Assembly (NCBI RefSeq): GCF_006345805.1
Contig: NC_043026.1
Coordinates: 10,230,001-10,294,000 of the forward strand
DNA: 64,000 bases
Direction: 5' to 3'
Source: Octopus sinensis
Taxonomy: Eukaryota
Below the pieces are notes generated by a model. That model was not told the DNA's origin, did no database searches, and saw only the letters and a program-made list of their open reading frames with translations. Positions 23,683 to 25,698 of this stretch are shown piece after piece. The position numbers were made by a program, and so were the translations under genes. Each line of letters opens with the position of its first letter. Within the stretch, counting starts at the first letter, position 1.

Positions 23683-25698
23683 CTACCCTTTTCCTGTCTT
23701 CCCTGTATGAATATGTCTGTGTCTTGTTAAGACAGAATTTTGACGAAATGCTTTACCACAGATATTACATTGAAATGGTTTTTCTCCTGTATGAATACGT
23801 TTATGTGCAATTAAGTTTCTATTGTCAGAGAAAGATTTACCACAGATTTCACAATGATATGGTTTCTCTCCTGTATGAATACTTTTGTGATTCATTAAGT
23901 TTCTATTGTCAGAGAATGATTTACCACAGATATCACAATGATGTGGTTTCTCTCCTCTATGAAAACGTTTGTGTCTAGTTAAGACATTATTATGAGAGAA
24001 TGATTTACCACAAATATCACAATGATATGGTTTCTCTCCTGTGTGAATACGTCTATGTGCAGTTAAGACACAATTAAAAGAGAATGATTTACCACAGATA
24101 TCACAGTGATATGGTTTCTCACCTGTATGAGTACGTTTGTGGGCAGTTAAGACTCTATTTTCATAGAATGATTTACCACAGATGTCACAGTGATACGGTT
24201 TCTCTCCTGTGTGAATACGTATGTGTATAGATAAGTTAATACTTTGAGAGAATGATTTACCACAGATATCACAGTGATATGGTTTCTCACCTGTATGAAT
24301 ACGTCTGTGTATAGTTACATGACTAATGTTAGTAAATGATTTACCACAGATATCACAATGATATGGTTTCTCTCCTGTATGAGTACGTTTGTGAGCAGTA
24401 ACATTACCACTCTGAGAGAATGATTTACCACAGATATCACAAGCATATGGTTTCTCTCCAGTGTGAATACGTTTGTGTCTATACAAGTAACTACTGTGAG
24501 ACGTATGAATATGTCTGTGTCTTATTAAGACAGAATTTTGGGAAAATGCTTTCCCACAGATATTACATTGAAATGGTTTCTCTCCTGTATGAATACGTTT
24601 ATGTGCAGTTAAGTTTCTATAGTCAGTGAATCCTTTACCACAGATATCACAGTGATATGGTTTCTCTCCAGTATGAGTACGTTTGTGCACATTAACATAA
24701 CCACTGCTAGAGAATGATTTACCACAGATATCACAATAATATGGTTTCTCTCCTGTGTGAATACGTTTATGTGCAGTTAAGACACAATTATAAGAGAATG
24801 ATTTACCACAGATATCGCAGTGAAATGGTTTCTCCCCTGTATGAACACGTTTGTGTCCAGTTAAATGAATACTTTGAGAGAATGATTTACCGCAGATATC
24901 ACAATGATATGGTTTCTCTCCTGTATGAATACGTTTATGTGTAGTTAAGTGATTATTCTGAGAGAATGATTTACCGCAGATATCACAATGATATTGTTTC
25001 TCTCCTGTATGAATTCCTTTGTGTACAGTTAAGTTACTATTTTCAGTGAATGATTTACCACAGACATCACAATGATATGGTTTCTCTCCTGTATGAATAC
25101 GTATGTGTTTTGTTAAGGCAGTATTGTCAGAGAATGGCTTACCACAGATATCACAATTATATGGTTTCTCTCCCGTGTGAATATGTCTGTGTGTAGATAA
25201 GTGACTACATCTAGAGAATGATTTACCACAGATATCACAATGATATGCTTTTTCACCTGTATGACTATTTTTGTGTTCCTTTAAGTGACTATTTATAGAG
25301 AATGATTTGCCACAGATATCACAATGATATGGCTTCTGCCCTGTATGAATACGTTTATGAGTAGTTAAGTGATCATTCTGAGAGAATGAGTTACCACAGA
25401 TATCACAATGATATGGTTTCTCCCCTGTATGAGTACGTTTATGTCTAGTTAAAACACTATTCTGAGAGAAAGATTTACCACAGACATCACAGTGGTATGG
25501 CTTCTCTCCTATATGAATTCGTTTGTGTACAGTTAAGTTACTATTTTGAGAGAATGATTTACCACAGATATCACATGGATATGATTTCTCTCCAGTGTGA
25601 ATACGTTTGTGTCTAGATAAGTAACTACTGTGAGAGAAGGATTTACCACAGATATCACAGTGATATGGTTTCTCCTCTGTATGAATACGTTTGTGCAT
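23683..25698 (-). CDS. C2H2 zinc-finger protein, array copy 3 (23 fingers plus an internal half finger; fusion gene)
   Basis: 671-aa open finger ORF with the internal junction [16 protein letters not shown] at ~24502. Confidence 0.85.

Follow-up and report, generated by a model that had tools for sequence, protein, structure and literature searches.

How can two genes of a tandem array become one, so that the end of the first is read straight into the start of the second? This question is raised by a cluster of C2H2 zinc-finger genes in Octopus sinensis, which was analysed in a stretch of 64,000 nucleotides (the window; positions below are counted from its first letter). A preliminary description of this DNA had proposed that two unusually long genes, copies 3 and 6, arose when the deletion of one whole intergenic spacer fused two neighbouring genes and the product was then duplicated.

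An array of zinc-finger genes with long members

Nine head-to-tail units were found on the minus strand of the window, starting at 12.3 kb, and four further units lie to the right of it, giving 13 array copies in total. Each unit is made up of consecutive C2H2 fingers plus a spacer about 4.4 kb long. From copy 1 to copy 13 there are 12 such spacers, which diverge by 1.2-3.0%, and the nearest relative of each shifts along its length, a mosaicism that is a sign of repeated exchange in the array. Two short open frames recur in every spacer (for example, 20998-21384 and 22411-22899) and resemble decayed retrotransposon ends; no Pfam family was found for the two frames tested.

The N-terminus and the ancestral first finger are interrupted by stops and frameshifts in all 13 array copies, within about 400 nt upstream of the array ATG (for example, 25699-26100), and an out-of-frame ATG stands just ahead of the usable one in 13 of 13. 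Unlike the array copies, the gene at 4437-5531 has its ancestral N-terminus intact, along with the true first finger, and comparison with it showed that the finger called "first" in the array copies is the ancestral second finger. A second young array is located to the left of the window on the plus strand (L005-L009), with a 14-finger gene every 6.4 kb or so and finger peptides that are identical between the copies displayed. On the minus strand of L021, near 4600-4870, a terminal finger, a stop and a short 3' flank are followed 180 nt on by two in-frame fingers.

Copy 3 is composed of 14 fingers, a half finger and 9 fingers (Table 1). Its frame runs from 23683 to 25728 without a stop, begins 14 residues ahead of finger 1 and contains fingers only: 23 of the form C-x2-C-x12-H-x3-H (Pfam zf-H2C2_2, E 5e-201, 23 stretches), which follow each other with a 28-residue period and TGEKP-type linkers, the join being the sole exception. 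No KRAB domain appeared in this frame among the 25 of 33 Pfam families listed. The 14+9 fingers previously counted for both long genes describe copy 3 correctly, once the half finger is added, and have to be revised for copy 6, in which 14 fingers and the half finger are followed by 11.

Table 1 Positions of the fused genes, their parts and their relatives in the window.
Feature	Position	Strand	Description
Copy 3, fused gene	23683..25698	-	internal ATG (MHKRIH) to stop, 671 aa
Left part, fingers 1-14	24502..25665	-	copy-4-like
Finger 14	24502..24573	-	former terminal finger without its GKTGKG-stop tail, by nearest-finger comparison
Joining base	24502 (copy 3); 43213 (copy 6)	-	fits neither parent type
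Cys-less half finger	24460..24501	-	helix half of first finger, 14 residues between fingers 14 and 15
Right part, fingers 15-23	23683..24447	-	copy 2/7/8/10-12-like, with normal terminal tail and stop
Stand-in for minimal deletion, 4,504 nt	19201..23704	-	gene tail, spacer and next gene's start to mid first finger
Copy 2	18047..19263	-	unfused relative of right part; 14 fingers, with a single frameshift in the assembly
Copy 4	30121..31086	-	nearest unfused relative of left part, 11 fingers
Copy 5	35576..37819	-	noisy; fingers 1-4 then 15-23 of fused type by finger order, no join
Copy 6, second fused gene	42227..44406	-	join at 43213; two extra fingers, frameshifted as assembled

The join is in frame, out of finger register and unique to two places

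In copy 3, the step from one finger to the next is 84 nt in 21 of 22 cases and 126 nt in the remaining one, which is the join, so that the array is thrown 42 nt out of finger register with the frame kept. We extended this comparison to 264 kb, consisting of the window and 100 kb on each side, in which 447 of the 458 pairs of neighbouring fingers were 28 residues apart, six 56, two 27, one 60 and two 42; both 42-residue steps are the two joins. The 21-mer at the join was found on the minus strand at 24490-24510 and 43201-43221 (two in the window; none expected, from 100 shuffles) and had no match elsewhere in the 2.72-Gb assembly, where a looser pattern returned the same two sites. The junctions that had been placed near 24502 and near 43212 are thereby fixed at 24502 and 43213 as the only ones in the assembly, and the earlier account of an in-frame join that leaves a Cys-less half finger out of register is borne out by the single long step in an open frame.

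To the left of the join, the terminal finger is retained up to and including the codon after its last histidine, and to the right the sequence of the first finger picks up where its helix begins. Homology across the join amounts to one base at most. Splice signals are absent, since the left end is not followed by GT, nor is the right end preceded by AG, and a splice origin of the join was ruled out on this ground.

The two parts of the fused gene have different ancestry

The identity of the fingers that meet at the join was examined by nearest-finger comparison. The 15 fingers nearest to finger 14 (6-12 differences per 72 nt) all carry the terminal tail, and the nearest ordinary internal finger differs from it at 16 of 72 positions. 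KAF fingers number 15 among the 515 fingers of the 264 kb, of which 13 end a gene and two are the joins, and the exact terminal pattern was found genome-wide in 13 places, every one in this array. A finger reading KAF followed by RHRHIHT had been thought to be confined to the last finger of each gene; this holds for the combination of KAF with RHRHIH and fails for RHRHIH alone, which also occurs in one unrelated internal finger. A check for the combination inside non-fused paralogs found none, and the fusion is not refuted on this count.

The seven nearest matches of the half finger are all first fingers, each differing from it at 2 of 42 nt, in agreement with the origin first suggested for the piece after the join. 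Another Cys-less half finger is seen in copy 9 (60820-60900) and at the corresponding position of copy 13 (L015); in both, the linker passes directly into the helix half and then a stop. A strict search for such half fingers among 210 proteins returned by protein search gave 0 of 2,916 neighbour pairs, in a biased sample.

We then compared both parts of the fused gene, finger by finger, with 10 unfused copies. Fingers 2-13 differ from copy 4 by a mean of 6.3 per 72 nt and from copies 2, 7, 8, 10, 11 and 12 by 9.2-9.8, and fingers 15-22 differ from copies 2, 7, 8 and 10-12 by a mean of 3.6-4.5 per 72 nt and from copy 4 by 8.4. Exceptions to this pattern are finger 17, which is nearest to copy 1, and fingers 3 and 12, which are nearest to copies 9 and 13. 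Aligning each half to the single-gene copies, the check proposed in the preliminary description, placed the shift from copy-4-like to copy-2/7/8/10-12-like ancestry at the join. Taken together, the terminal finger at position 14, the first-finger half behind it and the ancestry switch suggest that copies 3 and 6 are, very probably, chimeras of the gene end of one paralog type and the gene start of another.

Internal duplication of a single gene was ruled out, as the left and right parts differ by 4-13 nt per finger. That no fusion took place, and that a long gene instead acquired an internal terminal-type finger by gene conversion and subsequently lost 42 nt, we consider highly improbable. Finger shuffling is frequent in the array, which speaks for such a conversion, but a chance meeting of a terminal finger with a first-finger half would be required, steps of 42 residues are seen at the two joins only among the 458 pairs of the 264 kb, and the ancestry switch over 12 and 8 fingers would go unexplained; the finger comparison largely refutes this history.

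Neither the left nor the right parent was found unfused in the stretch examined. Among the best candidates scored, the stretch of fingers 5-6 in the left part had no counterpart outside copies 3 and 6, with the next best at 87%, which fits a left parent consumed by a deletion. The exact finger order of the right part was absent from the 10 unfused copies compared. These observations bear on a quite unlikely alternative, in which the join is the breakpoint of a duplication, or of an unequal exchange between sister copies, which connected the end of a downstream gene with the start of an upstream one and cost no spacer at that time. Tandem duplication leaves end-to-start joins and has made the array itself, and finger 14 is nearest to the terminal finger type of its own gene. 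The parents should persist under such a breakpoint, however, and the left type was found only in the fused copies and the right finger order in no unfused copy compared, although later turnover could have removed both.

Possible routes to the fusion

Our main explanation, for which the chances seem about even, is that a blunt non-homologous deletion joined the end of one gene to its neighbour midway through the neighbour's first finger, and that the fused gene was then duplicated. Such a deletion would take out the stop and spacer together with the beginning of the following gene in one event; the minimal loss would be about 4.5 kb, mended by end joining, and duplication of the fused gene likely followed. 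The stand-in for this loss in Table 1 was built from the present-day end of copy 3 and start of copy 2. As a route, one blunt deletion is the simplest, and we hold it to be evenly poised between right and wrong. Of the original proposal, the end-to-start chimera is retained, and the single step that removed exactly one spacer is not established, as the same letters could come from other routes: the products of a duplication breakpoint and of a two-step history would be identical at the join, which limits the choice of route.

In the two-step history, an in-register exchange at a common HIHTG-coding word would connect the terminal finger with the linker ahead of the neighbouring gene's first finger and give a 24-finger gene, from which an in-frame loss of 42 nt would then remove that linker and the Cys half of the finger behind it. 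We consider this somewhat unlikely, yet worth weighing. In four of the six copies tested (4, 6, 11 and 12), the end of the terminal finger shares a 13-nt word with the linker that precedes the first finger; recombination is frequent in the array, with its mosaic spacers 1.2-3.0% apart and fingers shuffled among copies; and copies 9 and 13 have, as an independent event, lost a Cys half within the gene. Against this, two events are needed, the second of which has to strike precisely the finger beside the join, and the expected intermediate, a terminal finger followed by TGEKP, was not found among the 13 genome matches of the terminal pattern.

Related copies in the array

The fusion had been described as in frame in both long genes. 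Two related copies are indeed present, of which copy 3 is open and copy 6, in its assembled form, is frameshifted. Over 2,071 columns the two are separated by 15 substitutions, of which 12 are coding (5 silent, 7 not); relative to copy 3, copy 6 has also gained 168 nt (two fingers) and carries eight indels of 1-2 nt in its coding part. Most of these indels lie in base runs, and they resemble the errors of long reads. The two fused genes have different neighbours, and their upstream spacers are 2.0% apart, a distance typical of paralogs.

Copy 5 (region 35300-37900) has a similarity of about 80% to its relatives and contains numerous indels. Its last fingers and 3' flank occur a second time, the repeat being joined near 36135, and its 3' flank is in common with copy 3. 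The region is likely unpolished or mis-joined in the assembly, and copy 5 is possibly a derivative of the fused gene or else an assembly error.

The join is present in public sequencing runs

To these assembly-based results we added 8 of 24 listed public runs, from 6 studies and under three organism labels, of which X1, X2, X4 and X9 are genome-sized and X3, X8, X11 and X12 small, at about 1/30 of that size. Contigs of at least 132 nt bridged the join in seven of the eight runs (X1, X4, X9, X3, X8, X11 and X12), so the junction, whose absence from raw reads would have counted against the fusion, is present and the fusion is not refuted. In three of the four genome-sized runs and in all four small ones, the bridging contigs extend 50 letters beyond the join on one side and at least 81 on the other. 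Contig depths in the small runs were 22-78; X3, X11 and X12 were tentatively classed as RNA, and X8 was left unclassified. The fused join is likely transcribed, judged from unstranded contigs in runs whose RNA status is a guess. In run X2 (organism label A), of which about 80% was read, a normal first finger was seen and no contig covered the join or finger 14 (24506-24541); this may reflect presence/absence variation or the part of the run left unread.

At base 24541, four runs have the form of copy 3 and three that of copy 6. The ratio of contig depth between the join and the normal first finger was 0.31 and 0.29 in two runs, which, contig depth being no copy number, fits 2-3 fused copies against eight normal places; the stretch examined holds 2 join places and 8 normal first-finger places. 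One or more of the runs may be the assembly's own sample.

That the join is an artefact of assembly, or a copy of a spliced read-through RNA, is very hard to credit. Assembly faults do lie nearby, in the indel-rich copy 5 and in the base runs of copy 6, but the bridging contigs refute an artefact at the join, with the count of fused copies depending on this assembly, and a spliced RNA does not accord with the lack of GT/AG at the join.

The predicted product

The N-termini of the array copies being broken throughout, translation of the fused gene must start at the internal ATG (25698) or in an unseen exon. Given these broken N-termini and the out-of-frame ATG, the predicted fused protein may not be made at all. 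If translated, the gene most likely encodes a putative two-module DNA binder. Transcription from the promoter of the upstream gene would cross the join, and the last histidine of finger 14 is separated from the first cysteine of finger 15 by 21 residues instead of the usual 7.

An alignment-based fold was predicted without zinc and with alignment depth over fingers 13-14 only (mean pLDDT 82.4, pTM 0.44). It places normal fingers on both sides of the join and the half finger between them as a separate helix of lower confidence, and is uninformative on which histidine pair holds the zinc. An alignment-free fold (mean pLDDT 40.6) was set aside, as was, before folding, an alternative alignment with a gap placed inside finger 14. 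The half finger is likely a long linker between two finger modules. Continuous C2H2 arrays wrap around DNA, and a long interruption would split the wrap into two modules. A half finger without zinc would serve as a 21-residue linker between a 14-finger and a 9-finger module, and these would dock on DNA separately and not as one continuous array. The spare pair of histidines in the half finger, a putative ligand, could compete for the zinc of finger 14.

The ratio pN/pS was 0.23 at structural, 1.17 at contact and 1.03 at other finger positions (73 tree edges with at most 5 differences, 103 distinct fingers), values that are biased by the finger-picking pattern and carry little weight; as a crude measure, they suggest constraint at structural positions. 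Protein search returned no close relatives; the best matches were mostly vertebrate zinc-finger proteins at no more than about 60% identity, and the join motif occurred in none of the 210 returned proteins, in which candidates sharing most words were scored. Exact look-up of window proteins in a protein collection gave 0 of 5, and an atlas search gave generic zinc-finger clusters only.

Comparison with known systems

In haemoglobin Lepore and the red-green opsin hybrids, unequal crossing-over joins the front of one paralog to the back of its neighbour, and the intervening DNA is lost. Copies 3 and 6 are similar in that their two parts come from different paralogs, and under the proposed deletion the DNA between them would likewise have been lost. 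The known hybrids are in register and of normal length, whereas in copies 3 and 6 the join is out of register and the arrays are added together. The join is not an in-register homologous crossover of the Lepore type, and could be counted as one only under the two-step history; what copy 3 does have is the in-frame, genomically real join expected of a deletion chimera.

TFIIIA is a zinc-finger protein with a long linker. A further case is the plant EPF/ZPT family, in which, according to the part of the source consulted, a long linker permits gapped core sites (PMC3268024). Both have few fingers and are unrelated to the genes studied here, and the analogy would extend to the half finger only.

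As described in the consulted portions of the literature, a change of finger number by duplication or deletion is a common path in zinc-finger genes (PMC3126818, PMC5363842), and young zinc-finger clusters are highly recombinogenic (PMC12575710). By the same partial accounts, the primate and mouse Kruppel-type (KRAB) clusters resemble this array in their clustered paralogs, rapid change of finger number, intra-array duplications and deletions, and block duplications (PMC3126818, PMC5363842, PMC12575710). In these clusters, as far as those portions go, whole fingers are gained or lost within a gene, whereas here two near-whole arrays have been joined out of register and a scar was left. KRAB zinc-finger genes also carry a KRAB domain ahead of the fingers, unlike the frame of copy 3 as judged from the Pfam families listed for it. 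Closer to hand, expanded clusters of multi-finger C2H2 genes are reported for coleoid cephalopods, and the window resembles them; the passages cited treat gene counts and expression (PMC9068888, PMC12513265, PMC10547256). PMC12513265 does not use the word "fusion" in its main text. In the literature searched, which comprised titles and the beginnings of abstracts and covered few subscription papers, no paper was found to describe two finger arrays joined end to start and out of register. The fusion is a well-marked instance of an already known kind of event.

Implications

The present case concerns a single event in a single cluster. A broader possibility, which we offer as speculative and rather improbable, is that head-to-tail joining of whole arrays is a recurring source of long genes in the effector-less clusters of this lineage. 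Translation of the fused gene would yield two finger modules in one protein, with a helical half finger as the spacer between them; the gene would spread to several copies and would then be trimmed by in-register finger loss to scar-less genes of normal length with new finger mixes, for which copy 5 is a candidate.

Exchanges between paralogs are mostly in register and leave no trace, and the scar described here allows the parents, the order of events and the later duplication to be traced. In a highly repetitive cluster, the join moreover serves as a unique tag, which eases assays of copy number, presence in populations and expression. For the evolution of such genes, the fusion means that a single step, the addition of a neighbour, can almost double a finger array.
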